A stretch of DNA of 32,000 nucleotides from Nitrospirota bacterium (GCA_016219645.1 JACRLR010000012.1:45220-77219); one strand, 5' to 3'; shown: positions 3,438-31,151, numbered from the stretch's first letter. Numbers and translations are program-made. The notes: generated from the letters alone by a model not told the origin.

Positions 3438-3827
3438 CTATCTGCTCCGGTACTTCTCAGCCAGGTGTGTGATCGCTTGTTCAGCGTGTTTCGTCGCCAC
3501 GTCCGCATGACCTGCTTTCCCGTGCTCAATGGCCTGCTTGAGTTCCCCGATCCCTGCGTCCACATGCGGAGCCTCGCCGGCCTTCAGAGCAGACTGTAGC
3601 GCCGCTTCCGCACTGGTGAGGAATGCACCCACATGACCCTGTTTACCATGGTCCGCCGCCTCTTGGGCGAGCGTGATGGCTTCCTCGCGGTGCTGCTCCT
3701 AAGCGCGTATCACATCCCGCCTGGCCCCGCCTTCGCCAAATACCTGTTGCAGCGGTAGCACCGTGGCGGTGACGAGAACAACTAGTGCGGCGAGTCCAAC
3801 AGCTTGCGACATGGTATATCGTGTCAT
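3438..3827 (-). pseudogene. SmbP-like small His-rich periplasmic metal (Cu)-binding protein gene interrupted by an in-frame TAG
   Basis: One frame reads signal peptide MTRYTMSQAVGLAALVVLVTATVLPLQQVFG.., then TAG at 3699-3701, then EQHREEAITLAQEAADHGKQGHVGAF..HVDAGIGELKQAIEHGKAGHADVATKHAEQAITHLAEKY. The latter resembles N. europaea SmbP repeats from memory ([35 protein letters not shown]). RBS GGGAGA sits 6 nt before the ATG at 3827. Confidence 0.6.
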
Positions 3828-3898
3828 TGGCATTCTCCCTTCTGAATAGACGTGAATACTACGGGCTAAAGGGTGACCCTGATCCTGCTCCGTTTCAC

Positions 3899-5182
3899 TC
3901 ATCTACCCACCACCGGCGTAAACCCCTCGAACGACTGAAGAGATGTTTCGACCATGACTCGCGCCAACTGATCCCGGTTCAGCGGACAGGTTCTCTCTTC
4001 GGTCTTGCGAACCAAGCCCGTCGGAACGGTGTCGCTCGTCCAGAGTTTGATGACGAGGCGGCAATTTTTGAAGGTCGGCCACACCAACGCGTCATACGCA
4101 TATGTCGCGGACTCCCAGTGCGTCGCAATCCGGGCGCCATTGACTTCGATCGTGTCTTCGCCGGTTTCAATCGGTACGGTGTTTGGGTGGACACCCATCG
4201 CAAGATTGCCGGCTTGATGAAAGATAGTCAGCAGTTGGGCAGAACGGGATTGATTCGCCAACGGGTCGTCACCGGGATCGTACTGAGCGGCAATCGTTTC
4301 TTCCCATTGATTCGGAGGCATGGGCCTCCCGTACCGATCAGTAGGAGCTTCGCTGAACCACAGTCTGATCTTCTCAGCGTTGATGGCCCGCAACTGATAG
4401 GCCTTGAGAGAAGTGATCGGACCAGCCAGGAAGTTGTTCGGATCGGCCAGAGTCCAGTACCGAGCGGCGTACACAACCTTCGCACCAGGCGCGAAGTTCT
4501 TCCAGGCCAGATATTCAGGATGGTCAACGAGCGCCACGGTTGACTTGGCCGGATCCGGATAGGTTTCCTTCAACGCCTGGGCGACGGCCTCCGGTACTGG
4601 GATCTCTTTTCGACTATGTTCCGTGATGGTGTCGTACCGATCCTGTGTTGTTTCGACCGACATCTGCCTCTGGTACTCGTTGGTGATTTCTTCCGCGATC
4701 TTGTCGATTGCCGTGCTGAGAACGTTGCGCAAGTCGGGGCCGCTCACATCGATGAGCTTGCCGAGATAGGGCTCCGCGATACGCCGGGCAATCACCTCAG
4801 CGTTCCGATAGTAATATTCCGAAATCTGCCGATGCCCTTCTGCATGTTCAACAATCCTCTTCTGCGGATTATTCGGCAGCCATGTCGTGAGGTTAAGTTG
4901 CAGCGTCACTTTAATCCGGTTGATCGTGGCCTTCGCATGCATCGCATCGGTCTGCATGATCTGACCGCCGACGGACGCATCGGAAAGGAACCCCCCGGCA
5001 CGCACCGCCTCTTCGGGTCCCGTGAGCGGCGGCCGGTCACGCGGCGGACGGTTGGGATCGAAGTATCGCGTACCAATTTGAGCCGGCATTTTGACGATCT
5101 CCACCTGCGGCTGTTTCGACTGAGCAGATGGAACTCCGACAACCAGCACGAGTATGATCATGAGCCACGAACGCATAGACAC
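3899..5182 (-). CDS. Secreted hypothetical protein (N-terminal region with a DUF922-like ..EHAEGH.. motif; function unknown)
   Basis: 427-aa ORF with a clear signal peptide (MSMRSWLMIILVLVVGVPSAQS). The segment LTTWLPNNPQKRIVEHAEGHRQISEYYY loosely recalls the H-x-x-G-H motif of predicted secreted Zn-protease-like DUF922. No confident family assignment was made. Confidence 0.6.
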   Translation of the reverse strand: MSMRSWLMIILVLVVGVPSAQSKQPQVEIVKMPAQIGTRYFDPNRPPRDRPPLTGPEEAVRAGGFLSDASVGGQIMQTDAMHAKATINRIKVTLQLNLTTWLPNNPQKRIVEHAEGHRQISEYYYRNAEVIARRIAEPYLGKLIDVSGPDLRNVLSTAIDKIAEEITNEYQRQMSVETTQDRYDTITEHSRKEIPVPEAVAQALKETYPDPAKSTVALVDHPEYLAWKNFAPGAKVVYAARYWTLADPNNFLAGPITSLKAYQLRAINAEKIRLWFSEAPTDRYGRPMPPNQWEETIAAQYDPGDDPLANQSRSAQLLTIFHQAGNLAMGVHPNTVPIETGEDTIEVNGARIATHWESATYAYDALVWPTFKNCRLVIKLWTSDTVPTGLVRKTEERTCPLNRDQLARVMVETSLQSFEGFTPVVGR

Positions 5183-5628
5183 CCTTCCTCATCACAGCTT
5201 CAGCTTGCTCTCTGCGCGCCTGCCTTGTCTTTCGCATCTTTCGCCTTGGCGGCTTTCACAGGCGGCTCGTGGGAGGTACCCGTCGATACCTCGTCCCGTC
5301 CGGCAACATAAGTAACCGGCAAACTTTAGGAAACACTCATTTTACTCGCAATAGGAACGGTGAGGCAATCGTAGTGAGTTGGGGAAAACCTCGCGAGGGC
5401 TGCTGAAGCCATCCGCATATCTTGATGAGTAAGAGGTCACCACAGAGGTATGCAGAATGCTCAAAACGGCTGATGTTCTCACCAGCCCAACCCCGGTGCC
5501 CGGCTCGACTGAGATCGCCGAAGTCCGAGACACGCCGTTCCGCGATCACGGCAGCAGCGAGCGAAGAACCGCTCTGCAACAGGTCAGCCTATGTTATAGT
5601 CCTGTGCCATCTTTAGGAGACTCACTGC

Positions 5629-7255: not shown

Positions 7256-7861
7256 TCAATGGCGCATATGAGCCCTTGAGGAATCCGGGAGGAGGCGGAA
7301 CGACCTCAGCATTTTCCCGCCCTGGGCGTCATACGGCACGAGACCGTACACGTACTGATCGTTCGCAAGATAGACGAACTCGTTAGGGGCAGGTTGCTGG
7401 CGGAGGGTCACTCTCAACCCTTCCTTCACGCCTGTCAGTCGAACCAAAGAAATCTCGCTGCCGGGAGGCAGCAGTCCGGATGAGTCGAGCCAGTCCTGCA
7501 GCAAGCGTTCCGGCGATCGCTCGAACACGCTGACGGTCAAACCCGAAGGTCCACGATCTGCCACCCGGCCGGTCGCGGGATCTTTCCGTTGAAAACGTAC
7601 GCGCTGGACCGCCGTCGGCTGTGTGGTTGTCTGGGCGGGGCCTTCGGTGAGAGGCACGTATTCTCTTGGATAGTACTTGACCGTAAAACCATAGGTGCGG
7701 TCAGTATATTTGTCTCGCATCTCCGCCTGGACGACAGGCGCTGAGTCCGTCGACTTGCCGATTTGCCGCACCGTGTTGTCGCACCCGGACAAGACGAGAC
7801 CCACGACAATCATCTTTGAAAGCCAACCGACTCGAAACACCATCGGTGTACCGTTCGCCAT
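7256..7861 (-). CDS. Hypothetical lipoprotein
   Basis: ORF 7256-7915. The likely start is an internal Met (MANGTPMVFRVGWLSKMIVVGLVLSGC) giving a signal peptide with lipobox VLSGC. No recognisable family. Confidence 0.5.
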   Translation of the reverse strand: MANGTPMVFRVGWLSKMIVVGLVLSGCDNTVRQIGKSTDSAPVVQAEMRDKYTDRTYGFTVKYYPREYVPLTEGPAQTTTQPTAVQRVRFQRKDPATGRVADRGPSGLTVSVFERSPERLLQDWLDSSGLLPPGSEISLVRLTGVKEGLRVTLRQQPAPNEFVYLANDQYVYGLVPYDAQGGKMLRSFRLLPDSSRAHMRH

Positions 7862-8187
7862 GTGATGCACCCCTCGTGCTTCCTGCCCCTGTGTGTATAA
7901 CCGACGAATCGGCACGGCGGTCCACCGATCGGCTCATGGAGGGTGGCGTACAACTGATTCGGCGCATTGCTGCGCGCGTCATCTTGCACGGAGGCAGCCG
8001 AGGATGTCAATGCATCGAGCGTACAAACGGCACGATCGAGCCAGGCCTTTGGCGGGACCGCCGTGAGCGCTTCGGACACTTAAAACCGGCACGTCATTGG
8101 CTCTGCGTCAGGGGATTCGAGGCAGACCTGCAATATGGAATCTCGTCGGCGGCACGGCCGCAAGTGTTTGAAAAACAGTGCGGCCTC

Positions 8188-8427: not shown

Positions 8428-8889
8428 ATGACGGGAAGGAATTTCGGAATGGCAATCCTAATGATGGGGAGCGCTCTGATTCTGTCAGGAGGCATGGCTT
8501 TCGCTGAAGATGACCCCCCATTGCCCCCGGTTCCACCTGAGTATGCAGACAAAAAAATGCCGGCTGGAGGCTGGACGGATCCTAAGGCAATCGAAGAAGG
8601 AGAGCTGATTTACAAGGGCGAGGTTAATCCGAACGTCAACTGTGGCAGCTGCCACGGCAAGGACGGCACACCGGTCAAGAAAGGCGCGCGGGATATGCGC
8701 GATCCTAAAAATATCTGCCGCTGGTCTGACGCATTCTGGTTCTGGCGAATCTCGGAAGGTATCCCGAAGACAAAAATGAAAGGTTTCAAGAACGCCCTGA
8801 CGGAAGAGCAGATCTGGCATGTGATGGCGTTTGAGAACATGTTCTCAAACGGAGGCAAGCCGCACGACCACTCGTGCTACAAACCGTAA
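8428..8889 (+). CDS. Periplasmic monoheme class I c-type cytochrome
   Basis: RBS AAGGAGG, signal peptide (..GGMAFA|ED), a single CGSCH heme-binding motif, and a downstream Met-containing loop (IPKTKMKGF). First gene of the operon containing the NirK-like pair. Confidence 0.8.
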   Translation: MTGRNFGMAILMMGSALILSGGMAFAEDDPPLPPVPPEYADKKMPAGGWTDPKAIEEGELIYKGEVNPNVNCGSCHGKDGTPVKKGARDMRDPKNICRWSDAFWFWRISEGIPKTKMKGFKNALTEEQIWHVMAFENMFSNGGKPHDHSCYKP

Positions 8890-8996
8890 GCAGGAAGGTA
8901 ACGACAATGCCCTGAACCGGGGCTGACACCATTCGGTTCGCCCGCGTCGTATGAGAGAAGACAGTATCAGGGCAGTCCAAAATCAAAGGAGGCGTC

Positions 8997-9980
8997 ATGT
9001 CTATTAGTTTATCTCGTTGTGTGCGCACGGCCGGATTGGTCGGCGCATTTATGATGACCCCATATCTGGGCATCCATGCAGGTGTGGTGTCGGCAGAGAC
9101 CATCAAAGCGCAACTGGCGTTCGCACCCAATGTTCCTCCTCCCATCAAACGAACCGAGCCCGCCACGGTCCTCGTCAACTTGACATCGGACGAGTGGGTC
9201 GGTCCGCTGAGCGACGATAACAACTATGAGTTCTGGGGTTTTAATAAGCACACCCCAGGACCCATGATCCGTGTCATGTTGGGCGATACGGTTGAAATCC
9301 GCATGAAGAACGATAAGAACAGCAAGGAATCCCACAATATCGACTTCCATGCGATCACGGGGCCAGGCGGCGGGGCGAGCCTGCTCAATAGCGAGCCAGG
9401 GCAAGAAAGCGGGGGAAGGTTTAAGATGATCATTCCTGGCATCTTTATGTATCACTGCGCCACCGCCTCGCCGTCCATTCCCGAGCACGTGTCGAATGGC
9501 ATGTACGGCACGATCGTCGTCGAGCCGGTGGGTGGGTTGAAGCCTGTCGACAGGGAATATCAGCTCACGCAAAGCGAGTTTTACACGAAAGAGGGTGCTG
9601 AGAAGGGCGAGACGATGGAATTTTCGTACGAAGCTGGGTTAGATGAGCGTCCTTCCCATGTGGTCTATAACGGCCATAAGACTGCGCTGGTCAAGAACCC
9701 CCTCAAAGCCAAGGCGGGGGAAACCGTTCGGATTTTCTTCACCAACGTAGGACCCAACTTTGTCGACTCTTTTCAGATCCTCGAGCAGCCGTTCGACAGG
9801 GTCTACACCGAGGGTTCTTTGAGCGCACCACCGGCGGAAAATGTCAAGGTGACCAAGGTTCCTACTGGTGGCGCGGTGATGGTCGAGTTTAAAGTCAAGA
9901 CGGCCGGCACCTATACCCTCGTTGACCCAGTGGGCAATCGAAAGGACCTCGGCGCCATGGGTCTGCTGAAGGTAGAGTAG
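8997..9980 (+). CDS. NirK-like two-domain cupredoxin protein, paralog 1 (domain-I T1Cu and T2Cu ligands intact; domain-II His residues missing)
   Basis: Signal peptide ..GVVSA|ETI. NirK signature SHNIDFHAITGPGGG (H113, D116, H118), MYHCATASPSIPEHVSNGMYG (H153, C154, H164, M169). In the second domain, FQILE and LVDPVG replace the PHLIG and VNHNL motifs of classical NirK. Confidence 0.8.
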   Translation: MSISLSRCVRTAGLVGAFMMTPYLGIHAGVVSAETIKAQLAFAPNVPPPIKRTEPATVLVNLTSDEWVGPLSDDNNYEFWGFNKHTPGPMIRVMLGDTVEIRMKNDKNSKESHNIDFHAITGPGGGASLLNSEPGQESGGRFKMIIPGIFMYHCATASPSIPEHVSNGMYGTIVVEPVGGLKPVDREYQLTQSEFYTKEGAEKGETMEFSYEAGLDERPSHVVYNGHKTALVKNPLKAKAGETVRIFFTNVGPNFVDSFQILEQPFDRVYTEGSLSAPPAENVKVTKVPTGGAVMVEFKVKTAGTYTLVDPVGNRKDLGAMGLLKVE

Positions 9981-10035
9981 AGGATCCAATTAACGAGGCC
10001 ATCTACGAGAGTTCTCAAAAATTAAAGGAGGCGTC

Positions 10036-11040
10036 ATGCCTAAGAGTTTCTTACACAACATGCGTCATGCCGGGTTGATCAGCGCCTTGGTCATGGCTCC
10101 GTGTCTCGCCATCAATGCAGGCGTGGTGTCCGCGGAGACCATCCAGGCCCAACTCCTGAAGGCACCCAATGTTCCCGCTCCCATCACGCGAACCCAGCCC
10201 GCCACCGTCGTGGTCAACCTGGAAGCATCCGAGTGGGTCGGTCTGATCAGCGATGATAATAGGTATGAGTTCTGGGGGATCAATGGCATGGTGCCAGCGC
10301 CCATGATCCGCGTCATGGTGGGCGATACGGTTGAAGTCAATTTCAAGAACAAGAAGGACAGCAAGGAGAGTCACAATCTTGACTTCGGCAAGGCGACCGA
10401 CGGAGCCGCCCTGGTCACTGCGGAGCCTGGAAAGGAAGCCAAGCTATCATTTAAGGCCACCAAACAAGGTCTCTTTATCTATCAGTCCTCCACTGCAGCG
10501 CCATATAACATTCGACACTTGTTGAGTGGGATGTACGGCTTGATCCTCGTTGAGCCGGTTGGTGGGCTGAAGCCTGTCGAAAAAGAATTCTATGTCATGC
10601 AGAGCGAATTTTACATGAAGGACGGCAAGAAGAACGACACCTTGGATTTCTCGATCGACAAGGTCAAGGAAAAGGATGCGTCGTATATCGTGCATAACGG
10701 CCACATGACCGCGTTGGTCAAGGTTCCACTCCGCAGTAGAGTGGGAGAGACCACTCGATGGTTCTACGGCAACGCAGGAGTCAACTTTGAATCTTCGTGG
10801 CATGTCATCGGAGAAATGTTAGACCGGGTATGGCCGGCGGGTGACATGTCAAAACCGCCGCTTGAATCTATCCAAAGCACCCTGGTGGGGACGGGTGAAG
10901 CGACCATCGGAGAATTCAAAGGCGAAATGCCCGGCACGTTCGTGTCGGTTGACCACTCGCTCTTCCGCACCGAAAAGGGCGCCCTTGGCCTGCTGAAGAT
11001 AGATGGTCCGACTAATCCTAGCCTCTTCAAAGGTCTGTAG
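10036..11040 (+). CDS. NirK-like two-domain cupredoxin protein, paralog 2 (domain-I Cu ligands degenerate; domain-II His residues retained)
   Basis: Homologous to paralog 1 over its whole length, with the same RBS context (AAAGGAGGCGTCATG) and signal peptide. It reads SHNLDFGKATDG (His->Gly) and IYQSS (His-Cys->Gln-Ser) but retains SSWHVIGE and SVDHSLF in domain II. Confidence 0.75.
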   Translation: MPKSFLHNMRHAGLISALVMAPCLAINAGVVSAETIQAQLLKAPNVPAPITRTQPATVVVNLEASEWVGLISDDNRYEFWGINGMVPAPMIRVMVGDTVEVNFKNKKDSKESHNLDFGKATDGAALVTAEPGKEAKLSFKATKQGLFIYQSSTAAPYNIRHLLSGMYGLILVEPVGGLKPVEKEFYVMQSEFYMKDGKKNDTLDFSIDKVKEKDASYIVHNGHMTALVKVPLRSRVGETTRWFYGNAGVNFESSWHVIGEMLDRVWPAGDMSKPPLESIQSTLVGTGEATIGEFKGEMPGTFVSVDHSLFRTEKGALGLLKIDGPTNPSLFKGL

Positions 11041-11138
11041 TAATCTGCAGGGAGAGGATTAGGATAGTGCCAAGACACAGCTGATTCACTAGCAGTGTGG
11101 GCTCAGCGCAGCACGGTCGTACCAGAGTAACATAAGAT

Positions 11139-11174
11139 GGGGAGGGAGAGGATGAGCCTCTTCCTCCCCGTTTT
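11139..11174 (+). terminator. Rho-independent terminator of the cytochrome c/NirK-like operon
   Basis: GGGGAGGGAGAGG (11139-11151) pairs with CCTCTTCCTCCCC (11157-11169) as a 13-bp stem with one G-U, a 5-nt loop ATGAG, followed by GTTTT. Confidence 0.7.
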
Positions 11175-11317
11175 ACGATTGGGAGAAGAGGGTATAGCAT
11201 CTCGTGTGCAACCGGTTGTACATAACAACGGCGTGCTCGCTTCCATCACCCCCCTACAGCCACTCGGATGGCCTTGCTCAGGCAGACCCGTAGAAGGGAT
11301 CGGTCCTGCAGAAGGTA

Positions 11318-11572: not shown

Positions 11573-12121
11573 ATGAAAAGCAGAAGAAGTAAATGGTTGG
11601 GCGGCATCGGCGCTGCGGGGCTGGTTGTCGGATGCCTGGGGCTGGCTGGTTTTGGTTTAGGAACAACAGCTTCTGACGCGCAAGCCGGTCCCTTGGCGGA
11701 ATTCCAAGGCGGCAAGGCGGTGGGGTTGTCGGCGAGGTTTACCATTTTGGATTCATTTAATAAAGAGGCGGCGCTGGACAATGAGACCGGATTGGTGTGG
11801 GAAATGATACCGGAGCGAGCGATGACGGTGTGGAAAAATGCCGCCGGTGTCTGTGCAAAAAAGACCGTCGGTGGCAAGAAGGACTGGCGCTTGCCATCAC
11901 TCAAAGAATTGGAGACCCTGGCGGATCACACGATCTATCCTCCCCCCGCCCTCGTATCCGGCCATCCATTTTCCAACATCGAGCTTCATGGTTATTGGAC
12001 GTCAACGGAGCACGAAGAGTATCCCTTCAGCGCCTGGGACGTGAACTTCGACTATGGCATCATCGGCAACGATTTTAAGATCAACAAAAACTTCGTCTGG
12101 TGCGTGCGCGATAACAGTTAG
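11573..12121 (+). CDS. Secreted DUF1566 (Lcl C-terminal domain) protein
   Basis: RBS AGGAGGG and a signal-like N-terminus. Core motif ETGLVWEM....MTW..A...C......GGKKDWRLPSLKELETL....... and the C-terminal ..FVWCVR are typical of DUF1566. Confidence 0.75.
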   Translation: MKSRRSKWLGGIGAAGLVVGCLGLAGFGLGTTASDAQAGPLAEFQGGKAVGLSARFTILDSFNKEAALDNETGLVWEMIPERAMTVWKNAAGVCAKKTVGGKKDWRLPSLKELETLADHTIYPPPALVSGHPFSNIELHGYWTSTEHEEYPFSAWDVNFDYGIIGNDFKINKNFVWCVRDNS

Positions 12122-12320: not shown

Positions 12321-13244
12321 TTAGGTTTTGTCGAGGGGCTCAACGGCAAGATCGGGATTCTTCAACGACGTGCTGATGGCCTGCGAGGTGCGCTGTATCT
12401 GCGTTTGAATATCCTCTCGTGCATGCTCAGGAAGACCGAACAAGCCCGTCCAACGGCTAACCGTTGAGGGAGAAGAGCCCTCAGTTTGACGCCAGGCATT
12501 GACATATCTCAGGCCACTCAGGACGAGGGCTGCCCCGCCCATGGCCACCGAATCGACGATGCAATACCAGAACGTCACCCCGCTTGGAGGATTGGCTTGA
12601 GATAGGCCAAGCACAGGATCTATGGCCGCCCATTTCCACGCGCCCACGGCTGTCCCAATTAATTCCAGCCAGGTTGTAATAAAGAACGCCGCGAGATAGA
12701 CCATGGGTGAACGGCCTAGGAACAGAAACCCCAAGAAAATGGCGAACATTAATGCGCCCAGTGCGTCGGCCTGTTCCGGCAACCCACTTATCCCCCAAGC
12801 TGCCCATGCACCGCACACGATGATCACAAAGGCGGTAATCCCTCTCGCATATCGCTGAAAGAGCCCGGATCGGGCCATGGCAATGGCTGTGAGATACACC
12901 ATTCCATGACCAGGCGGCACATAGGCCGGCACATTCTCAAACCGATAGGTGTATCCCCCCATATAGATCGACGCAAAATGTTCGCCCCATGTGGCAAAGG
13001 CCACTGCAACGAGGACTTGGATTCTCGCTTCTCCTTTTTCGCCGAGAAGCATCACCAAGAGAGAGACAAACGCGATACCCCCCAGGACATACTGCCGTCC
13101 CAGGCTCGCGTCTATTTCTAACGTCAAACAGACGGCGACAGCAAAAAACGTATAGGCCGCAATGACGTAATCCCTGGTCCTGTGGGGATGCGCAACACCC
13201 AGTTGCGGGAAATGGCGTAGCATGGTCGACTGCAGTACATTCAT
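12321..13244 (-). CDS. Hypothetical polytopic inner-membrane protein
   Basis: 307-aa ORF with about 7-8 hydrophobic helices and a hydrophilic C-terminal tail. No family recognised. Confidence 0.6.
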   Translation of the reverse strand: MNVLQSTMLRHFPQLGVAHPHRTRDYVIAAYTFFAVAVCLTLEIDASLGRQYVLGGIAFVSLLVMLLGEKGEARIQVLVAVAFATWGEHFASIYMGGYTYRFENVPAYVPPGHGMVYLTAIAMARSGLFQRYARGITAFVIIVCGAWAAWGISGLPEQADALGALMFAIFLGFLFLGRSPMVYLAAFFITTWLELIGTAVGAWKWAAIDPVLGLSQANPPSGVTFWYCIVDSVAMGGAALVLSGLRYVNAWRQTEGSSPSTVSRWTGLFGLPEHAREDIQTQIQRTSQAISTSLKNPDLAVEPLDKT

Positions 13245-17990: not shown

Positions 17991-18455
17991 CTAGGGTCTT
18001 TCACGATCGATAACAATGGCAACCCCCTCCGCTCCAGGGTTCACCGGCTGACTCACTCCCTCCAAGTCTCCACTCTGAGGCATCGCTTGGCCGGACTTCG
18101 ATAGACGAGCCACAATCACGACCGTGCCGACATCAGAAAGTTTTCTGGAAGGCATCATACTGACTGAGTCATCGAGCCGAAAGTTGAAGGGCAAATCCTT
18201 TTTCGTCGCCCGTACAATCGCGACAGGCATCGGTGGGCCATTCGTTTCACGCGCAAACACAAACAATGTGTCTGTCGCGGCTCCTTTGTTGGCCAGGCCT
18301 GGCGCGATCGTCACCTTGCCACTGATGGCAAGCGACGATCCAGCCTGTCCAGTCGGCTTCGCAGGAGCTGTCGGTTCCGTATATCCAGATCCTGTCGAGG
18401 CAAGCAACAATCCGCAGACTAGTAGACCACACCTTATCCAACGTCTGTCGACCAT
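17991..18455 (-). CDS. Secreted stand-alone paralog of the CcmI C-terminal domain
   Basis: ATG at 18455 follows AGGGAG (8-nt spacing); the track start at 18461 is a TTG. It has a signal peptide (RRWIRCGLLVCGLLLASTGSG). The mature part aligns along its length with each repeat at the CcmI C-terminus: ISGKVTIAPGLA....TDTLFVFARETNGPPMPVAIVRATKKDLPFNFRLDDS.SMMPSRKLS....VVIVARLSKSGQAMPQSGDLEG.SQPV. Confidence 0.7.
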   Translation of the reverse strand: MVDRRWIRCGLLVCGLLLASTGSGYTEPTAPAKPTGQAGSSLAISGKVTIAPGLANKGAATDTLFVFARETNGPPMPVAIVRATKKDLPFNFRLDDSVSMMPSRKLSDVGTVVIVARLSKSGQAMPQSGDLEGVSQPVNPGAEGVAIVIDRERP

Positions 18456-18525
18456 GTGCAATACTCCCTGTTTGTGAAAAGACTCTTCGTTATCTACGAA
18501 TTTATCGCGGAGGACACAGCGCGCA

Positions 18526-18633: not shown

Positions 18634-20313
18634 CTAGGGCCGTTCATGATCGATCACGACTGTGATCCCGTCCCCCCCGGCTTGAATCGGCTGACTAGTC
18701 CCCTCCAGATCTCCGCTCTGCGGCATGGCCTGGCCTGATTTCGATAGACGAGCCACGATCACCACCGGTCCTGTACTCGACAATTTTCTGGACGGCATCG
18801 GACTGGTTGAGTCATCGAGTTGAAACGTAAAGGGTAAATCTCGCTTCGTTGCCCGCACGATTGCCACCGGCATCGGAGGCCCATTCATCTCGCGGGCAAA
18901 GACAAACAGCGTGTCGGCGGCGGATCCCTTGCCGGCTAAACTGGGTGCGAGAGTCACCGTGCCTCTGATCGCACGTGGTTGTCCGGCCTGCCCCATTGGT
19001 TGAGCCGGCGCTGCTGGTTCCGTACCCATCCGCTCACGGTCGATCAGGACCGTGATCCCGTCTCCCCCGGCTTGAATCGGCTGACTGGTCCCCTCCAGAT
19101 CTCCGCTCTGCGGCATGGCCTGGCCTGATTTCGATAGACGAGCCACAATCACCACCGGTCCAGCGCCGGACAGTTTTCTCGACGGCATCGGGCTGGTCGA
19201 GTCATCAAGCTGGAACGTGAAGGGCAAATCCTTCTTGCTCGCCCGCACGATTGCCACCGGCATCGGGGGCCCGTTCACTTCGCGAGCAAAGACAAACAGC
19301 GTGTCCGTCTCCGAGACCTTGCCGGCCAGACCGGGCGCCAGGGTCACCGTGCCTCTGATCGCCCGTGATTGTCCCGCCTGCCTCACTGATTGAGCCGGCG
19401 CTGCTGGTTCCCTGTCCATTCGTGCCATCTCTCGGCCACCGCCAAGTCGGCTTTTGGCCTCGTCGATCGCAACGACTAATTGCTGTGTCATTTCCGGATC
19501 GATGTCCTCAGGAAGATTCGCGCGAGCGAGTTCCCAATCCTTCACCGCCTGGGCAAAATTATCTCGATTGAATGCCACGGTCCCTGCCAACATCAGCGCC
19601 TTGACATTGCGTGGATCGATCTTCAGCGCCCGTTGGATCAACGCTTCAGGCCTCCCCTCCAATTTACGACCATGGAGCACCCCCATGGCATCGGCATAAT
19701 CGGCGAGTAACTGGGCATCGTCAGGGATCAGGTTGGTGGCTTGCTCATAGGCCAATGCTGCTTCTGCGTAGCGACCGACCCCCATATACGAACGCCCGAG
19801 CAATGCCCATCCAGCGCCATCACCGGGGTTCTGCTCCATCTTTTGTTTGAGCCGCTCGATCAGTGGGTCGAGTCCGGCAGCGAAGGGATCCCCCTCTTGT
19901 GATCCTCCCTGTGCAGACAACGAAGGGGCAGGTGACTCTGTTATCGCGAGTGGATTTCCAAGTTGCCAGTAGAGCAACCCGCAGGCCGTCGGGATGATGA
20001 TGGCAAGCGCGAACGCCACCGGCTTGCCATGCATCTGCTGCCGGGGCTTTTTGGTGGTCGTCTCCGTGGTACCGGTCTCTTCAAGCAGCCGGCGTTCGAG
20101 CTCCTGTCGCGCTTGCTGATAGAGTTCATCGGTGAGGACAGAATTTGCCCGATCCTGTTCCAGCTCCGCAAACTGTTGCCGGAAGATCGACAGGGTCTTC
20201 TCTTCTTCTCTCGCTGGTGCAACAGCCGCTGTGCGCTTCATCAGGGGCCACAACAGGAGACCCAGGACGAGCAGAGTCATCGTCGATGCAATGAGCCAGA
20301 ACATGATGGTCAA
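18634..20313 (-). CDS. ccmI: Cytochrome c maturation protein CcmI (CycH) with a duplicated C-terminal domain
   Basis: Two N-terminal TM helices flank a charged cytoplasmic loop (..EEEKTLSIFRQQFAELEQDR..), followed by TPR-like repeats (WALLGRSYMGVGRYAEAALAYEQA..) and two tandem 130-aa copies of the C-terminal domain. The track start is the TTG at 20313 overlapping the ccmH stop; the ATG at 20304 (MFWLIAS..) is an alternative. Confidence 0.85.
   Translation of the reverse strand: MTIMFWLIASTMTLLVLGLLLWPLMKRTAAVAPAREEEKTLSIFRQQFAELEQDRANSVLTDELYQQARQELERRLLEETGTTETTTKKPRQQMHGKPVAFALAIIIPTACGLLYWQLGNPLAITESPAPSLSAQGGSQEGDPFAAGLDPLIERLKQKMEQNPGDGAGWALLGRSYMGVGRYAEAALAYEQATNLIPDDAQLLADYADAMGVLHGRKLEGRPEALIQRALKIDPRNVKALMLAGTVAFNRDNFAQAVKDWELARANLPEDIDPEMTQQLVVAIDEAKSRLGGGREMARMDREPAAPAQSVRQAGQSRAIRGTVTLAPGLAGKVSETDTLFVFAREVNGPPMPVAIVRASKKDLPFTFQLDDSTSPMPSRKLSGAGPVVIVARLSKSGQAMPQSGDLEGTSQPIQAGGDGITVLIDRERMGTEPAAPAQPMGQAGQPRAIRGTVTLAPSLAGKGSAADTLFVFAREMNGPPMPVAIVRATKRDLPFTFQLDDSTSPMPSRKLSSTGPVVIVARLSKSGQAMPQSGDLEGTSQPIQAGGDGITVVIDHERP
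18637..19419 (-). repeat. In-frame tandem duplication (period 390 bp, 2 copies) inside ccmI
   Basis: Copy 1 spans 19030-19419 and copy 2 spans 18637-19029. They share long identical runs, for example the 59-nt GTCCCCTCCAGATCTCCGCTCTGCGGCATGGCCTGGCCTGATTTCGATAGACGAGCCAC present in both. The GTGATCCCG anchor occurs at 18662 and 19052. Confidence 0.9.
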
Positions 20314-26542: not shown

Positions 26543-27136
26543 ATGAGGAAATGGCACGCGACGGGGGCAGGAGCTACGATGCTCATGCTTGTAATAGCCC
26601 TGTACCACCCCAACGTAGCCACAGCACACGGCGGCGCCGAGATGGAGCAAGACCCCTGCGTACGCAAGATGGGGGAGAGTGCGGTGCATTTCAGCGCCTA
26701 TCAGCCGCAATACGAGATAAAAGATCAATACTGCACGGAAATTCCTCAGGAAGGCGATACGTTCCTGGTCGTGGACCTCGTGGACTCGGCATTGCGCAAC
26801 GAACCGGTCGGGATGAGGGTCACGAGGGGAAACGGGAAGAACGCAGCAGAGGGTGAGATTGTGGCGAACATCCGTCCAAGCACTCACCCGGACGGAGTGC
26901 TCAGAGGCGAAGTAAGGCTGGACGAAGGTATGTATACCGTCACCATTGAGTCGGAGAAACGGAATCTGACACGGCACCCGCAGTATCTCTTGCGGGTACA
27001 CATGATTGACTATCCAAAGGTTGTGATGTCCATCGCAGGACCGTTGATAGGGGTACTGCTGTTTGCCTGGCTCGTCTATAAGCTCGTACGATCGAAATGG
27101 CTACGGAAATGGTGGACTGCTGCCCCCAGTTCGTAG
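26543..27136 (+). CDS. AmoE/AmoD (PmoD-family)-like periplasmic protein with a C-terminal membrane anchor, divergent paralog 1
   Basis: Signal peptide ending ..NVATA|HGG, conserved C-X9-H (PCVRKMGESAVHFSAYQP), a second Cys (DQYCTEIP), and a C-terminal TM helix (VVMSIAGPLIGVLLFAWLVYKLV). It sits upstream of copCD, as orf4/orf5 (amoE/amoD) do in ammonia oxidisers. Assigned by architecture and synteny. Confidence 0.6.
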   Translation: MRKWHATGAGATMLMLVIALYHPNVATAHGGAEMEQDPCVRKMGESAVHFSAYQPQYEIKDQYCTEIPQEGDTFLVVDLVDSALRNEPVGMRVTRGNGKNAAEGEIVANIRPSTHPDGVLRGEVRLDEGMYTVTIESEKRNLTRHPQYLLRVHMIDYPKVVMSIAGPLIGVLLFAWLVYKLVRSKWLRKWWTAAPSS

Positions 27137-27199
27137 GGAGCCCGACGTTCCGGCCTGCGATCATAAATGGTTCACCATTCCAGAGGGAGGATCACGACA

Positions 27200-27784
27200 A
27201 TGTCTGTGCAATTTCTAAGACCCGCAGGCCTGTGCCTTCTGATGCTGGCGATCGGGGTATTCTCCTCAACACAGGCTCAGGCTCATGGGGGATTGGCTCT
27301 GGCAGAGGACATGTGCCGGCTCACCATCGGCCCCTACAACATGCACTTCACCGGCTATCAGCCTGACAACACCCGCAATAAAGAATTCTGCGAGGACATT
27401 CCAGCGACCGGCCGCACAGTCGTCGTGCTTGACTACATGGATGATGCCCTCCGCCCGCTGACTACCGAGGTTCGGGTCATTAAGGATACGGGTTCGGAAC
27501 AAGATATTCAGGCCGTCACTGTCCTTCATTTGCCACCCAAGGTTTACCCCAACGGGACGGTGAATTTTGAATATAATTTTGCCCAGCCCGGCAAATATGT
27601 CGGTCTTGTCACCGTAGGCGGGCCGCAGGAACATATCTCGCGATTCCCGTTCTCGGTGGGTGCAGGGAGCACATGGACGCCTCCCTCCTACTTCATATAC
27701 GGATTTGGCGGGGCTGCCGTTGTCGTAGCAATTATATTTTTTGCCATGCGCGGACGTCGGAATACGTCAGATAGCGCTGCATAG
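27200..27784 (+). CDS. AmoD (PmoD-family)-like periplasmic protein with a C-terminal membrane anchor, paralog 2
   Basis: The start at 27200 follows GGGAGGA; the track ORF begins at 27167. Signal peptide ..STQAQA|HGG, motif MCRLTIGPYNMHFTGYQP, EFCEDIP, and a C-terminal TM helix (YGFGGAAVVVAIIFFAM). Closely related to paralog 3. Confidence 0.65.
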   Translation: MSVQFLRPAGLCLLMLAIGVFSSTQAQAHGGLALAEDMCRLTIGPYNMHFTGYQPDNTRNKEFCEDIPATGRTVVVLDYMDDALRPLTTEVRVIKDTGSEQDIQAVTVLHLPPKVYPNGTVNFEYNFAQPGKYVGLVTVGGPQEHISRFPFSVGAGSTWTPPSYFIYGFGGAAVVVAIIFFAMRGRRNTSDSAA

Positions 27785-27951
27785 AATGGATAGGAAGCAG
27801 GCCGTTCTGTACCGGGAATACTACGCGCAGAAACAACAGAGCCAAATGGCATGCCGCTGCCGATGCGTACGATAGTTGGACGACAGGATAGAGGCCCTGA
27901 ATCATGAGCTGGCCACGCACCATAGTACCGCTGGAGTTGATAGACAAAAAC

Positions 27952-27989
27952 GTACCCGAGTCGCAACGGCGCGGATGCGACTCGGGTAC
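27952..27989 (+). other. Perfect 14-bp intercistronic stem-loop between AmoD-like paralogs 2 and 3
   Basis: GTACCCGAGTCGCA (27952-27965), 10-nt loop, TGCGACTCGGGTAC (27976-27989). No U-tract follows, and it lies 47 nt upstream of the paralog 3 start. Confidence 0.6.
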
Positions 27990-28035
27990 AGCGTAGAAAT
28001 TGAGCGCGCCGAGATAGATGGTGAGGACACCGACG

Positions 28036-28623
28036 ATGTCGTGGAAATTTTTGAAACCTGCCGGCTTATGCGTTCTGCTGGTGACGTTTGGAGTTCCGCT
28101 TTCCGCACAAGCCCAACATACGCACGAATTGGAAAAGAACTTCTGCATCCTCAAGATCGGGCCCTACGGTATGCACCTTACCGGCTATCAGCCAGAACTC
28201 TCAGCCGGAAAAGAAAGCTGCGGAGAAGTTCCGGGGGTTGGGCGCACGGTGCTGGTGCTTGATTATATCGAGGGGGAACTTCGCTCTTTGCCCGTCGAGG
28301 TTCGGATCATCAAAGACACGGGCTCGGAACAGGATCTTCAGGCCATCACGGTCCTTCACGTGCCTTCTAAGGTGTATCCCAGCGGATTCATCAGTCTCGA
28401 ACACAACTTCGACCAGCCCGGGAAATTCGTCGGGCTGATAACCCTGGGTGGGCCACATGAACATGTGGCGCGGTTCCCAATCTCTATAGGGGAATCGAAC
28501 GTGGTTTCGCATTTCATGCACTACATTATGGTCATAGTCCCGCTCGCAGCAATCGCCGGTGGAGCGGTGATCTTCTTTGTCGTGCGCGGTCGACGCAAGC
28601 CTTCGGGCAGTACAGCGACGTAG
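28036..28623 (+). CDS. AmoD (PmoD-family)-like periplasmic protein with a C-terminal membrane anchor, paralog 3
   Basis: The start at 28036 follows GGTGAGGA; the track ORF begins at 28018. Signal peptide ..PLSAQAQHTH, motif FCILKIGPYGMHLTGYQP, ESCGEVP, and a C-terminal TM helix. Confidence 0.65.
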   Translation: MSWKFLKPAGLCVLLVTFGVPLSAQAQHTHELEKNFCILKIGPYGMHLTGYQPELSAGKESCGEVPGVGRTVLVLDYIEGELRSLPVEVRIIKDTGSEQDLQAITVLHVPSKVYPSGFISLEHNFDQPGKFVGLITLGGPHEHVARFPISIGESNVVSHFMHYIMVIVPLAAIAGGAVIFFVVRGRRKPSGSTAT

Positions 28624-28728: not shown

Positions 28729-29133
28729 ATGGAATCATGGACGATTCCCCCACTCAAGCACCTCGTGGTAGGCGCGGCAGTGGCAATAACGATGTGCGTG
28801 CACGTTGCCCCGGCGCTGGCCCATGCAGCCCTCGTCAAGGCAGAGCCGCCACGTCGGGCCGTCCTCGCCAAGGCCCCGGCTCACGTGCAACTCTGGTTCA
28901 ACGAGGAAATTGAGAGCGCCTATGCGTCGCTCACCGTGCTCGACGCCGGCAAAAACCCTGTTACAGCGGTCAAACCTCAACTTGCATCGAATGACCTGAA
29001 ATCCATTGTCCTGCCGCTGCCTGAGTTGGCGCCTGGGAAGTACTCGGTAAAGTTTCGGGTACTATCCTTGGACGGTCATGTAATTCAGTCATCCTTCGAC
29101 TTCACAGTAAAAGGCAACCTGCACGAGAAATGA
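28729..29133 (+). CDS. copC: Periplasmic copper chaperone CopC (Cu(II)-site-only type)
   Basis: RBS AAGGAGGAGG and signal peptide ..APALA|HAALV, giving a mature N-terminal His. Family pattern P...A.L...P..V.LWFNE.I and ..GKYSVKFRVLSLDGH...S.F.FTV (Asp-x-His of the Cu(II) site). No Met-rich Cu(I) motif. ATGA overlap with copD. Confidence 0.9.
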   Translation: MESWTIPPLKHLVVGAAVAITMCVHVAPALAHAALVKAEPPRRAVLAKAPAHVQLWFNEEIESAYASLTVLDAGKNPVTAVKPQLASNDLKSIVLPLPELAPGKYSVKFRVLSLDGHVIQSSFDFTVKGNLHEK

Positions 29134-31151
29134 TCGAGGTCATCGCAGCGCTTATCCGCTGGCTGGCGCTTGCATCCAACATGATCCTGATCGGCGGCTG
29201 CGTTTTCCTTGCGATCGCCGGGCGTGAGAGAGCCGCTTTCGACAGCCCATGGTTCGCTCGCCTGAAGCGGGCGCTACCGTGGCTCGCGATCACGCTTCTG
29301 CTGGGTCTGCTGGCCTTACTCGCTATTACAACGGCACAGGTCACGGGCAATGTTGAAAGTGCCTGGCACCCCGGAACTTGGCTTGAACTCTTACAGAAAA
29401 CTCGCATAGGCCTCATCTGGACATGGCGCGCAGCCCTTGCGCTTCTTCTGCTCGCTGTCGCCCTCTACGCTCGGCTTTCTTCCAGAACATCCTGGCAGTA
29501 CGCCTTGTGCGCAATCGTCGCTGCGCTCACGCTGGCTGTGGGGTCACTTGCGAGCCACTCTGCAGCCGAAGATCTCTCCGTGTTATCTGTGTTGCCCTAC
29601 ATGCTCCATATCGTGCTGGCAAGCGTCTGGGCCGGAGGATTGCCAGCCTTTCTCACCCTCCTGTTCGCCGCCACAGGAAAACAGCCGGACCGGAAGGCAG
29701 ATCGGTTCGGCATCCAGACCTTAACACGCTTTTCAGTCATGGCATTGCCCGTGATGATCGCGGTGATCGTGACCGGCGTCATCGTAACGTATCGGATGGT
29801 AGATACAAGCTACGCCGCATTAGCCGCAACGAGCTACGGCTGGTTTCTCAATTCAAAACTTGCACTGCTCCTGGCAATTCTCCTCATCGCCGCACGTGCG
29901 CACTTCGTCTGGGTGCCGTTACTCGGCCGGAACGAAGATGTGGCTGATGCAGGTGCGCGGGGACTTCGACGGTGGGTGACCGTCGAAGTCGTGCTTGCGT
30001 CAGCACTGGTGTTGGCAGCGACATTTCTCGCGAGCGCCGTGCCTGCGAAACATGCCGTCATTGAGGACTGGCCCTATCCATTCCGCTTCTCCATTGACGC
30101 CACCTGGGGCGAGTTCAGCGTCATGGTCCGCGTGGGGATAGGAATCGCCCTCCTGTTACTGGCAGGCGGTGCGGTCGCGCTCGGTCGATACAAGCGCTGG
30201 GGGACGAAGTGGCACATTGCCGTCCCATCTGTGCTGGCGGTTTGCGGACTGGCCGTTGCACTCCCCTCCCTTGCCGTTCAGGCCTTTCCAGAAACCTACC
30301 GCAAGACGCCGGTGCCATTCGATGCCATTTCCGTTCACAATGGCGCAACCCTATTCGCCGCAAACTGTGTGCCTTGTCATGGACCCCAGGCCAAGGGCAA
30401 TGGTGTGCTGGCCAAGACATTTGCGAAGAAACCGGTTGATCTGCTGACGGAGCCGCATACTGCGATGCATACCGCAGGCGACTTTTTCCATTGGCTGACT
30501 TACGGAATCCTAGAGTTTGGCATGCCGGCATGGGGCGACAAACTTTCGGAGGAGGATCGCTGGGATCTCGTCAATTTTCTCCATGCGATTTCCCGCGGCT
30601 ATCAAGCTCGTCTCATCAACTTCTACGTCGCTCCCAATCAGCCTTACGTCGTCCCACAGAACTTTTCCTATTCCGCACATGACGGCGCAAGCGGTACCTT
30701 GAAAGACTTTCGTCAGAAAAAATCTGTGTTGCTGACACTATTTTCATGGCCGGATTCACGCGCGAGGCTCGATCAGTTGAAGCAGGCTTACCCCGCACTA
30801 AGCAGCAGCGATACGATCGTGCTGGCGGTGCCCATCAATGACCTTAACCAACAGGATATGGCGGCGATCACCGCAGATCTGCCATTCCCAGTGGTGACTC
30901 AGGGTGCTCCGGAAATTGCACAAAGCTATGCCCTGTTCCGTAGAACCCTGAGTAATCCCGATTTGGCCGGTGAGGGGACAATGCCGAAACACATGGAGTT
31001 TCTGATTGACCGGTACGGTTTTTTGCGGGCGCGGTGGATCCCTGCAGTGGATGGAGCAGGGTGGACCGACAATAACCTATTGATGCAGCAAATTGAGCAG
31101 CTCAATCGGGAAAAAGAGATTCGGCCGCCGCCGGACGACCATGTACATTGA
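29130..31151 (+). CDS. copD: CopD-family membrane protein fused to a periplasmic cytochrome c domain and a Cys-less Sco/TlpA-like thioredoxin-fold domain
   Basis: The N-terminal ~400 aa are polytopic and CopD-like. They are followed by GATLFAANCVPCHGPQAKGNG...FGMPAWGDKLSEEDRWDLVNFL (monoheme cytochrome c). The final part is FRQKKSVLLTLFSWPDSRARLDQL...HMEFLIDRYGFLRARW (Sco/TlpA-like, with WPDSR where a CPDxC/CxxC motif would be). Confidence 0.85.
   Translation: MIEVIAALIRWLALASNMILIGGCVFLAIAGRERAAFDSPWFARLKRALPWLAITLLLGLLALLAITTAQVTGNVESAWHPGTWLELLQKTRIGLIWTWRAALALLLLAVALYARLSSRTSWQYALCAIVAALTLAVGSLASHSAAEDLSVLSVLPYMLHIVLASVWAGGLPAFLTLLFAATGKQPDRKADRFGIQTLTRFSVMALPVMIAVIVTGVIVTYRMVDTSYAALAATSYGWFLNSKLALLLAILLIAARAHFVWVPLLGRNEDVADAGARGLRRWVTVEVVLASALVLAATFLASAVPAKHAVIEDWPYPFRFSIDATWGEFSVMVRVGIGIALLLLAGGAVALGRYKRWGTKWHIAVPSVLAVCGLAVALPSLAVQAFPETYRKTPVPFDAISVHNGATLFAANCVPCHGPQAKGNGVLAKTFAKKPVDLLTEPHTAMHTAGDFFHWLTYGILEFGMPAWGDKLSEEDRWDLVNFLHAISRGYQARLINFYVAPNQPYVVPQNFSYSAHDGASGTLKDFRQKKSVLLTLFSWPDSRARLDQLKQAYPALSSSDTIVLAVPINDLNQQDMAAITADLPFPVVTQGAPEIAQSYALFRRTLSNPDLAGEGTMPKHMEFLIDRYGFLRARWIPAVDGAGWTDNNLLMQQIEQLNREKEIRPPPDDHVH

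Follow-up and report, generated by a model that had tools for sequence, protein, structure and literature searches.

The copper nitrite reductase NirK is among the best-studied copper enzymes, with many entries in the PDB, and is regarded as a homotrimer whose three active sites are identical. The NirKs described so far are built from chains of one kind, as homotrimers or as hexamers, and each chain carries all nine ligand and catalytic residues, and His306, His255 and Ile257 of a given site are contributed by domain II of the neighbouring chain. The type-2 copper (T2Cu) sits between two adjacent monomers and has His100, His135 and His306 as its ligands, the catalytic residues are Asp98, His255 and Ile257 (AspCAT, HisCAT and IleCAT), and Ala137 and Leu308 shape the channel (PMC5571812). 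Here we analyse a locus of a Nitrospirota bacterium in which the full set of nine residues is present in no single chain. The locus lies in a 32,000-nucleotide stretch of DNA (GCA_016219645.1, JACRLR010000012.1:45220-77219), which we call the window and from whose first letter all coordinates are counted, and consists of a gene for a monoheme cytochrome c (cytc) followed by two tandem nirK paralogs, P1 and P2. We propose, with a probability that we put at about 0.6, that cytc-P1-P2 encodes a periplasmic NirK-derived copper enzyme that would be complete only as an obligate P1/P2 hetero-oligomer.

The closest described relatives of P1 and P2 are the class II NirKs (6THE, 2DV6/6TFD, 1KBV and 2ZOO). 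The two paralogs share with them two cupredoxin domains, a periplasmic location and a c-type cytochrome partner (presumed in our case), and the HxxDFH, YHC, H-x4-M, HVIGE and DH motifs are positioned alike. Both chains match PF07732 and align end to end with 6THE, 6TFD, 2DV6 and 1KBV (E-values of 1e-70 to 1e-81), and the fold can be regarded as settled because the identity to the solved NirKs is 45-50%. Against TIGR02376, the NirK equivalog model (EC 1.7.2.1), P1 scores 251.9 bits and P2 227.5 bits, both below the cut-off of 296.3. The NCBI annotation (PGAP) of the P1 and P2 proteins (MBI5314981.1 and MBI5314982.1) reads 'multicopper oxidase domain-containing protein', and in the JGI annotation P2, like further proteins from both 90% clusters, is a 'nitrite reductase (NO-forming)'. 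Judged by their sequences, P1 and P2 are class II (AniA-like) NirK homologs; neither chain alone would qualify as a NirK, and a complete T2Cu set is offered by the pair only.

A NirK-family protein is likewise encoded together with c-type cytochromes in the ncgABC-nirK cluster of the ammonia oxidiser Nitrosomonas europaea, which comprises NirK, a two-domain multicopper oxidase (MCO) and two c-type cytochromes and for which a function in the handling of nitric oxide (NO) and nitrite during ammonia oxidation has been proposed. However, the NirK of this cluster is canonical, its MCO, NcgA, is a distinct protein, its cytochromes are two in number and it contains no reciprocal paralog pair. The P1/P2 locus does not show this arrangement: it has only one monoheme cytochrome c upstream and no NcgA-like gene, and 4KNS, which we take to be a suitable comparison for NcgA, matched P1 and P2 with an E-value of only ~1e-33. 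Paralogs that form heteromers through complementary degeneration are known from the Vma3/Vma11/Vma16 ring of the fungal V-ATPase and, with shared interface active sites, from the deoxyhypusine synthase and AdoMetDC 'prozyme' pairs of trypanosomatids. Those systems resemble the one that we propose in the duplication of a homo-oligomer, the shared site or interface, the reciprocal losses, the mutual dependence and the smaller number of active sites, but they belong to protein families other than NirK.

The locus itself has been described before. The duplicate nirK next to hydroxylamine dehydrogenase (HAO) of Palomo et al. (10.1101/138586; PMC9714041) is the same locus, and its tandem genes, synteny and co-transfer are already on record; 'two nirK genes' or a 'duplicate nirK' are reported for clade A2 and some clade B comammox (Palomo 2022, PMC9714041). 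The accessible passages of these papers treat both genes as nirK and mention neither a loss of ligands, nor complementarity, nor a heteromer. The original prediction, which was made from the sequence of the window alone, knew of no heteromeric NirK, and the searchable literature, from which subscription journals are largely missing, indeed contained no description of one or of ligand complementarity, nor any cupredoxin, NirK or multicopper oxidase heteromer that arose by complementary loss. A lone mention of a 'heterotrimer' in a NirK-related paper turned out to refer to Nar. The tandem nirK beside hao is published knowledge, and the ligand complementarity and the idea of a heteromer appear to be new.

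The ligand positions in P1 (8997..9980, plus strand, 327 aa) and P2 (10036..11040, plus strand, 334 aa) were fixed by HMMER alignment to the solved class II NirKs 6THE, 6TFD and 2DV6 (E ~1e-72 to 1e-81). The original prediction had assigned them by eye, and every substitution fell where it had put it. Domain I of P1 has all of its ligands, namely SHNIDFH (H95, D98 and H100), YHC (H135 and C136), EH (H145) and NGM (M150), and the half-site of domain II is lost: the corresponding motifs read sfQiLe (H255Q and I257L) and vdPvg (H306P), with additional G-to-E and E-to-Q replacements, and the protein ends without the C-terminal tail. In P2, it is the domain-I half-site that is lost, as SHNLDFG (H100G) is followed by a three-residue deletion of the GPG loop and then by iyQS (H135Q and C136S) and A137S. 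P2 retains H95, D98, H145 and M150, together with a complete domain-II half-site, sWHvIge (H255, I257, G and E) and vDHsl (H306), and the C-terminal tail. The position equivalent to AcNirK Thr280, which supports HisCAT, is Val in P1 and a conservative Ser in P2.

The type-1 copper (T1Cu) site has four of its four ligands in P1, and in P2 the Cys alone is lost. H95, H145 and M150 are invariant across all P2-type sequences (defined below), and the C136 position is Ser in 35 of 36 and Pro in the remaining one. In the window, the three T1Cu ligands kept by P2 are H113, H161 and M166, with S151 in place of the Cys; they may form a residual or altered metal site, or their retention may be a purely structural constraint. 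The earlier claim that both the T1 and T2 half-sites of domain I are abolished in P2 therefore stands with respect to H100G, H135Q and C136S, and has to be refined for T1Cu, where only the Cys is gone. The T2Cu set of H100, H135 and H306 is complete in neither chain and complete only if domain I of P1 is combined with domain II of P2. Similarly, of AspCAT, HisCAT and IleCAT, P1 has D98 only and P2 has D98, H255 and I257, so that the set is complete for the pair. A full T1Cu site, the Cys-His bridge, a three-histidine T2Cu site and the AspCAT/HisCAT/IleCAT set would thus coexist only where domain I of a P1 chain meets domain II of a P2 chain, and this sequence logic, already put forward in the original prediction, holds with a proper alignment. 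No convincing gain of His, Cys or Met common to P1 and P2, which could have served as a new shared metal ligand, was found.

The division of the site between two chains is not peculiar to the window. A search with P2 as the query against 5.8 billion proteins, in which homologs were sorted by nine positions (H95, D98, H100, H135, C136, H145, M150, H255 and H306), returned three sharply distinct classes by ligand pattern. The canonical class (HDHHCHMHH, 49 clusters) contains proteins of 328-356 aa and one 309-aa fragment, the P1-type class (HDHHCHM-Q-[P/A/T/S/V], 35 clusters) proteins of 325-327 aa, and the P2-type class (HD[H/G/Q/S/T][Q/R]SHMHH, about 35 clusters) proteins of 334-339 aa. As several of its clusters hold 100-240 sequences, the P2-type is common in the environment.

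A column test, in which 97 alignment columns with at least 95% conservation in the canonical relatives were searched for losses specific to one paralog type, was performed with 39 non-identical P1-type and 36 non-identical P2-type sequences. The losses specific to the P1-type are H255 (Gln in 39/39), I257 (Leu), the following Gly (Glu or Asp) and Glu (Gln), H306, P303, V240, A144 and the C-terminal tail. Those specific to the P2-type are H100, the GPG loop (deleted), H135, C136, A137 and I115 in domain I, and T197, G204, L215, A238, F266, Y270 and E272 in domain II. It follows from these losses that P1 is without the whole domain-II half of the pocket and P2 without the whole domain-I half. 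The lost ligand positions drift (H/G/Q/T/S/N at H100 and Q/R at H135 of P2; P/A/T/S/V/I at H306 of P1), and the retained half-sites are 100% invariant in each type.

To establish how the two types are arranged, one genome per GTDB species was scanned, which gave 78 loci in which open reading frames (ORFs) were called and every NirK homolog was classified. P1-type and P2-type genes were found in 39 species-level genomes, and those of them that carry a name are Nitrospira, Nitrospiraceae or Nitrospirota. Of the 37 species-representative genomes that allow the test, 36 have a P1-type gene with a P2-type gene immediately after it, a count that takes in three cases at contig ends (L049, L067 and L068) and two metagenome-assembled genomes (MAGs) with a split P2 (L024 and L052). 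Wherever their co-occurrence is testable, the two types form an adjacent pair, except in one MAG (L017), which is considered below. The frameshifts that split P2 into two ORFs in L024 and L052 are likely assembly or sequencing errors, because the hao and cyc genes of L024 are also split and, in L052, cycA (and only cycA) is shortened. In almost every pair locus, the gene before P1 is a homolog of the cytochrome c gene (63-97% identity). Both of the surveys that the original prediction had proposed, for the tandem pair and for the reciprocal substitutions in related genomes, thus gave a positive answer, and the loss extends beyond the residues that it had listed.

The genome closest to the window (L004, 8962-11005) has a P2 that is 96% identical, a P1 that is 83% identical and a cytochrome c that is 84% identical, and other relatives show about 92-95% identity for both P1 and P2. 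The mixed identities of L004 suggest that different lineages have recombined inside the operon.

About 30 other Nitrospira genomes, including those of the clade B comammox RCB, CG24E and palsa_1310, carry a single canonical nirK preceded by a homologous cytochrome c (65-76% identity), with no hao nearby. This single cytc-nirK operon has the same upstream cytochrome c family as the pair, and its NirK is the sister clade to P1 and P2 taken together. It differs from the pair in that it has one nirK with all ligands (HDHHCHMHIH) and the C-terminal tail, is not near hao and has no Lcl_C gene downstream. Among the hits kept, a canonical NirK was found in 0 of the 39 pair assemblies and a pair in 0 of the 30 canonical ones, although the MAGs are incomplete and the search motif is present in about 40% of close canonical NirKs, which bounds this count. 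The distribution suggests that the pair replaces the single nirK.

A neighbour-joining tree, calculated from a custom distance matrix and bootstrapped (n=100), shows the P1-type and the P2-type as monophyletic (100/100 each) and as sisters of one another (84/100), beside the clade of Nitrospira cytc-linked canonical NirKs. The stem branch is 0.24 for P2 and 0.117 for P1. This topology points to a single tandem duplication of nirK in a cytc-nirK operon.

Both copies have been kept since. The median pairwise dN/dS (Nei-Gojobori method, NG86) is 0.25 for P1, 0.24 for P2 and 0.12 for canonical NirK, where the pairs are not independent and dS is lower in the paralog sets than in the canonical one. 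For domains I and II separately, the values are 0.20 and 0.30 in P1 and 0.25 and 0.20 in P2, that is, the dead domain is the more relaxed one in each paralog. P1 and P2 ORFs are intact in 34 loci, and each paralog type has a large set of fixed, derived residues of its own. A dN/dS of ~0.25 indicates that both paralogs are maintained by selection, and P2 in particular, at ~0.24, is under purifying selection and not decaying, as had been presumed when random decay was set aside in the original prediction.

The three genes are co-oriented, and their coordinates are exactly those given in the original prediction. The first of them (8428..8889, plus strand) encodes a protein of 153 aa with a signal peptide and a single CGSCH heme-binding motif, which matches PF13442 and PF00034 above the cut-off. 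It is separated from P1 by 107 nt, and P1 from P2 by 55 nt. The identical string AAAGGAGGCGTCATG is found upstream of both the P1 and P2 start codons, and the Shine-Dalgarno context AAAGGAGGCGTC occurs before the P1 ATG (8985..8996, plus strand) and, with the same 12 nt, before the P2 ATG (10024..10035, plus strand). The signal peptides of both proteins have the common ending AGVVSA|ETI, so that the common ribosome-binding context and the near-identical signal peptides noticed earlier can be read directly from the sequence. P2 is followed by an intrinsic-terminator-like hairpin (11139..11175, plus strand) with a 13-bp GC-rich stem (11139-11169), a 5-nt loop and then GUUUUA. Its folding energy of -33 kcal/mol (z = -6.2; 0/200 shuffles fold equally well) agrees with the strong terminator that had been expected here, which a simple terminator scan overlooks because its U-run consists of 4 U only. 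Folding of the cytc-P1 gap showed no structure comparable to this hairpin, and a promoter scan upstream of cytc gave no convincing sigma-70 promoter. Given the short gaps, the identical ribosome-binding context and the single terminator, cytc-P1-P2 is an operon ended by a strong terminator, and the co-encoded monoheme cytochrome c is the presumed redox partner.

P1 and P2 are 52% identical in amino acid sequence over their full length, and this likeness is unevenly distributed. Residues ~31-120 are 63-77% identical, with third-codon-position identity of up to 0.73, and the 3' halves of the genes are 33-53% identical at the amino acid level, with third-codon-position identity of ~0.4-0.57; 15 nt around the two start codons are identical. 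The stronger likeness of the 5' halves may be due to past gene conversion or to a shared N-terminal constraint.

The following model would account for these findings. In an ancestral Nitrospira cytc-nirK operon, nirK underwent tandem duplication, and each copy then gave up the half of the catalytic site between subunits that the other copy kept. P1 would provide T1Cu, through which electrons enter or leave, the Cys136-His135 bridge, the T2Cu ligands H100 and H135 and AspCAT. P2 would provide the third T2Cu ligand H306, HisCAT (H255), IleCAT (I257), the residues that support them by hydrogen bonds and the C-terminal tail. In a NirK-type trimeric ring with a P1/P2 ratio of 2:1 or 1:2, exactly one complete T1Cu-to-T2Cu unit would be formed per trimer, its T2Cu predicted to be held by H118 and H153 of P1 and H307 of P2 (numbering of the window proteins), and the other two interfaces would be partial or dead. 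The cytochrome c would exchange electrons with the T1Cu of P1, and the enzyme would work in one of two directions, from HAO-derived NO to nitrite or from nitrite to NO. That P1 and P2 need each other is argued by their invariant half-sites, each of which could function only with the half of the other chain, and for this role the neighbouring gene is the sole candidate.

Several points weigh against such an obligate heteromer. As a trimer cannot alternate two kinds of subunit, two of its three interfaces would be incomplete, which is unusual and seemingly wasteful. The domain-II half-site of P2 is not perfectly ancestral, given the changes in domain II listed above. Many environmental (metagenome) P2-type proteins retain H100, and a P2 homotrimer could still offer a two-histidine site (H100 and H306) with HisCAT; a P1 homotrimer would have T1Cu and a two-histidine site that might bind copper. 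The limits of the dN/dS comparison belong here too, and no expression data for the P1 and P2 genes were found in the searchable literature. Finally, the exceptional locus L017, from the MAG of Nitrospira sp. CG24B, contains an intact P2 without cytc and P1. Compared with L069 (6948-9948), ~3 kb are replaced in L017 (9839-9948) by ~108 nt that end just upstream of the P2 ribosome-binding site, a difference that may stem from a genuine deletion or from faulty assembly. If the deletion is real and no copy exists elsewhere, P2 can persist alone.

P1 and P2 might instead be independent homo-oligomers of diverged function that are co-transcribed only because they serve a common pathway, an explanation that we regard as unlikely but the most serious of the alternatives. 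The P1 trimer would then carry T1Cu and a modified, two-histidine type-2-like copper site with a new chemistry, and the P2 trimer, devoid of T1Cu, might for example bind NO or nitrite, handle copper or act as a scaffold. The derived residues fixed within each type give each paralog a conserved identity of its own, as this explanation would have it, and the P2-type proteins with H100, the three of four T1Cu ligands that P2 keeps invariantly, which hint at a residual site, and the solitary P2 of L017 are all in its favour. What it leaves unexplained is the pattern of constraint, namely why H255, I257, G, E and H306 of P2 should be invariant beside a drifting H100 and H135, and why H100, H135, C136 and D98 of P1 should be invariant beside a drifting H306. 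Such a near-perfect mirror image would be an unlikely coincidence for unrelated functions. Moreover, a P2 without T1Cu would have no electron route to any copper site.

The longer stem branch of P2 and its missing T1Cu Cys could also mean that P2 is a non-catalytic pseudoenzyme or accessory subunit, which binds P1, HAO or cytochrome c554 and acts in assembly, stability or regulation. Catalytically dead paralogs that regulate an active one are indeed common among pseudoenzymes. However, a scaffold has no need to retain, invariantly, exactly those residues that P1 lacks, and P1 alone is without the third T2Cu ligand and HisCAT, so that there would be no complete paralog to regulate; we consider this explanation improbable. 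Relaxed selection and decay after the duplication, with a merely coincidental complementarity, can be rejected as scarcely credible, since the doubled dN/dS relative to canonical NirK and the two MAGs with a frameshifted P2 (likely errors, as discussed) are outweighed by a dN/dS of ~0.25 over dozens of species, by the integrity of the ORFs, by the conserved type-specific residues and by the lack of a canonical nirK among the kept hits of pair-bearing genomes.

With the obligate heteromer as the preferred explanation, the surroundings of the operon bear on what the enzyme might do. On the minus strand of the window, convergent with cytc-P1-P2, lie haoA (17776-16034), haoB (16013-14985), cycA (14878-14135) and cycB (14135-13539), recognised by PF13447, PF13435 and PF03264; HaoB scores 349.5 against TIGR04392, above the cut-off of 200. 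The distance of 2.5 kb between P2 and haoAB-cycAB, which had been given before, is correct. In 28 loci the hao cluster is 1.0-3.6 kb from the pair, mostly downstream and convergent. It is found upstream of the pair and on the same strand in L007, L047 and L068, and the linkage has thus outlived rearrangement. An observation that goes against this association comes from the 21-kb locus of Nitrospira sp. RSF1 (L069), which has no hao or cyc genes in its ~9-10 kb flanks. L069 contains the pair with cytc and a truncated Lcl_C match, and it is the sole exception to hao linkage among the loci with long flanks.

Co-transfer of the tandem nirK with HAO has been proposed by Palomo et al. (10.1101/138586; PMC9714041), and clade A1 comammox, N. 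inopinata among them, are stated to lack the pair (Palomo 2022, PMC9714041). Many clade B genomes have the single canonical cytc-nirK instead. Comammox organisms are without nitrosocyanin, and the operation of NirK in reverse has been argued to be kinetically unfavourable (Kits 2019). The oxidation of HAO-derived NO would fit the hao synteny and the lack of nitrosocyanin, and the most likely function of P1/P2 is a periplasmic interconversion of NO and nitrite that is linked to hydroxylamine oxidation. A role as an NO oxidase is a reasonable extension that the synteny tentatively suggests. The original prediction had connected the operon with the missing NO-to-nitrite step; the linkage to hao stands, but the connection was overstated, as the evidence for it is synteny and the pair cannot be a universal NO oxidase, being reportedly absent from clade A1, while many clade B genomes have a single canonical nirK instead. 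The most specific version of the proposal is a rather doubtful one: P1/P2 would be an asymmetric single-site heterotrimer and, in comammox of clade A2 and some of clade B, the NO oxidoreductase dedicated to turning NO into nitrite in the periplasm during HAO-based ammonia oxidation, with the electron passing via the T1Cu of P1 to the co-encoded cytochrome c. If true, NirK would have its first heteromeric member, and in these lineages there would be a concrete molecular candidate for the third enzyme that has long been sought in bacterial ammonia oxidation.

A natural, conserved NirK that is encoded by two genes and has a single complete site in each oligomer would add a new quaternary architecture to this family and would be a clean case of the conversion of a homomer into an obligate heteromer by complementary loss. 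In practical terms, each gene of the pair enters the gene counts of comammox genomes and metagenomes as a 'nirK' of its own, even though neither chain can be a NirK alone. The comammox clades concerned are reported to dominate drinking-water filters, groundwater and freshwater (Palomo 2022, PMC9714041). The enzyme that turns HAO-derived NO into nitrite in comammox is still sought (Kits 2019), and the pair adjoins hydroxylamine dehydrogenase and appears to have been transferred with it.

Elsewhere in the family, such a division of the site is hard to find. A set of 150 proteins that represent the diversity of NirK contained 92 fully canonical members and only a handful of degenerate ones, and no second complementary pair was established among them. 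One degenerate protein, P0213 (HDHDRHMHH), stands alone, without a NirK neighbour, in a ParB/Toprim mobile-element context. Another, P0264 (YCNYCRMHH), has a gene of 332 aa before it and, after it, genes for a cytochrome c of 845 aa and for an AAA protein that resembles CbbQ/NorQ. P0211, P0292 and P0294 are degenerate NirK-like proteins with ligands missing in both halves.

The gene content of the window as a whole, which has a G+C content of 55.7%, is that of a comammox-type Nitrospira. On the minus strand, ccmA, ccmB, ccmC, ccmE, ccmF, ccmG, ccmH and ccmI come first and haoA, haoB, cycA and cycB next (26138 down to 13539). Between ccmI and haoA there is an ORF of 156 aa that consists of an Ig_CycH stretch only (17991-18461, minus strand), in addition to the full CcmI of 559 aa with two stretches of this CycH/CcmI Ig-like domain and TPR (18634-20313, minus strand); in the literature on comammox, a duplication of CcmI is reported as a clade B trait (Palomo 2017, 10.1101/138586). 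On the plus strand, a 673-aa fusion of CopD, a copper homeostasis membrane protein, with a cytochrome c and an AhpC/TSA thioredoxin-like domain is encoded at 29130-31151.

Downstream of P2, the window contains a gene for a secreted Lcl_C (DUF1566-type) domain protein (11573..12121, plus strand, PF07603), which may be a separate transcription unit as it is located past the terminator hairpin. Practically all pair loci have this gene after P2 (66-93% identity), and it is absent from the canonical cytc-nirK loci (L035-L072). ORFs of about 200-300 aa at 26543-28623 (plus strand), 3785-5311 (plus strand), 7256-7915 (minus strand) and 12321-13244 (minus strand) had no Pfam or NCBIfam match. Three such ORFs sit between ccmA and copD. 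Homologs of the 307-aa ORF at 12321-13244 (60-85% identity) occur at varying positions in the majority of pair loci.

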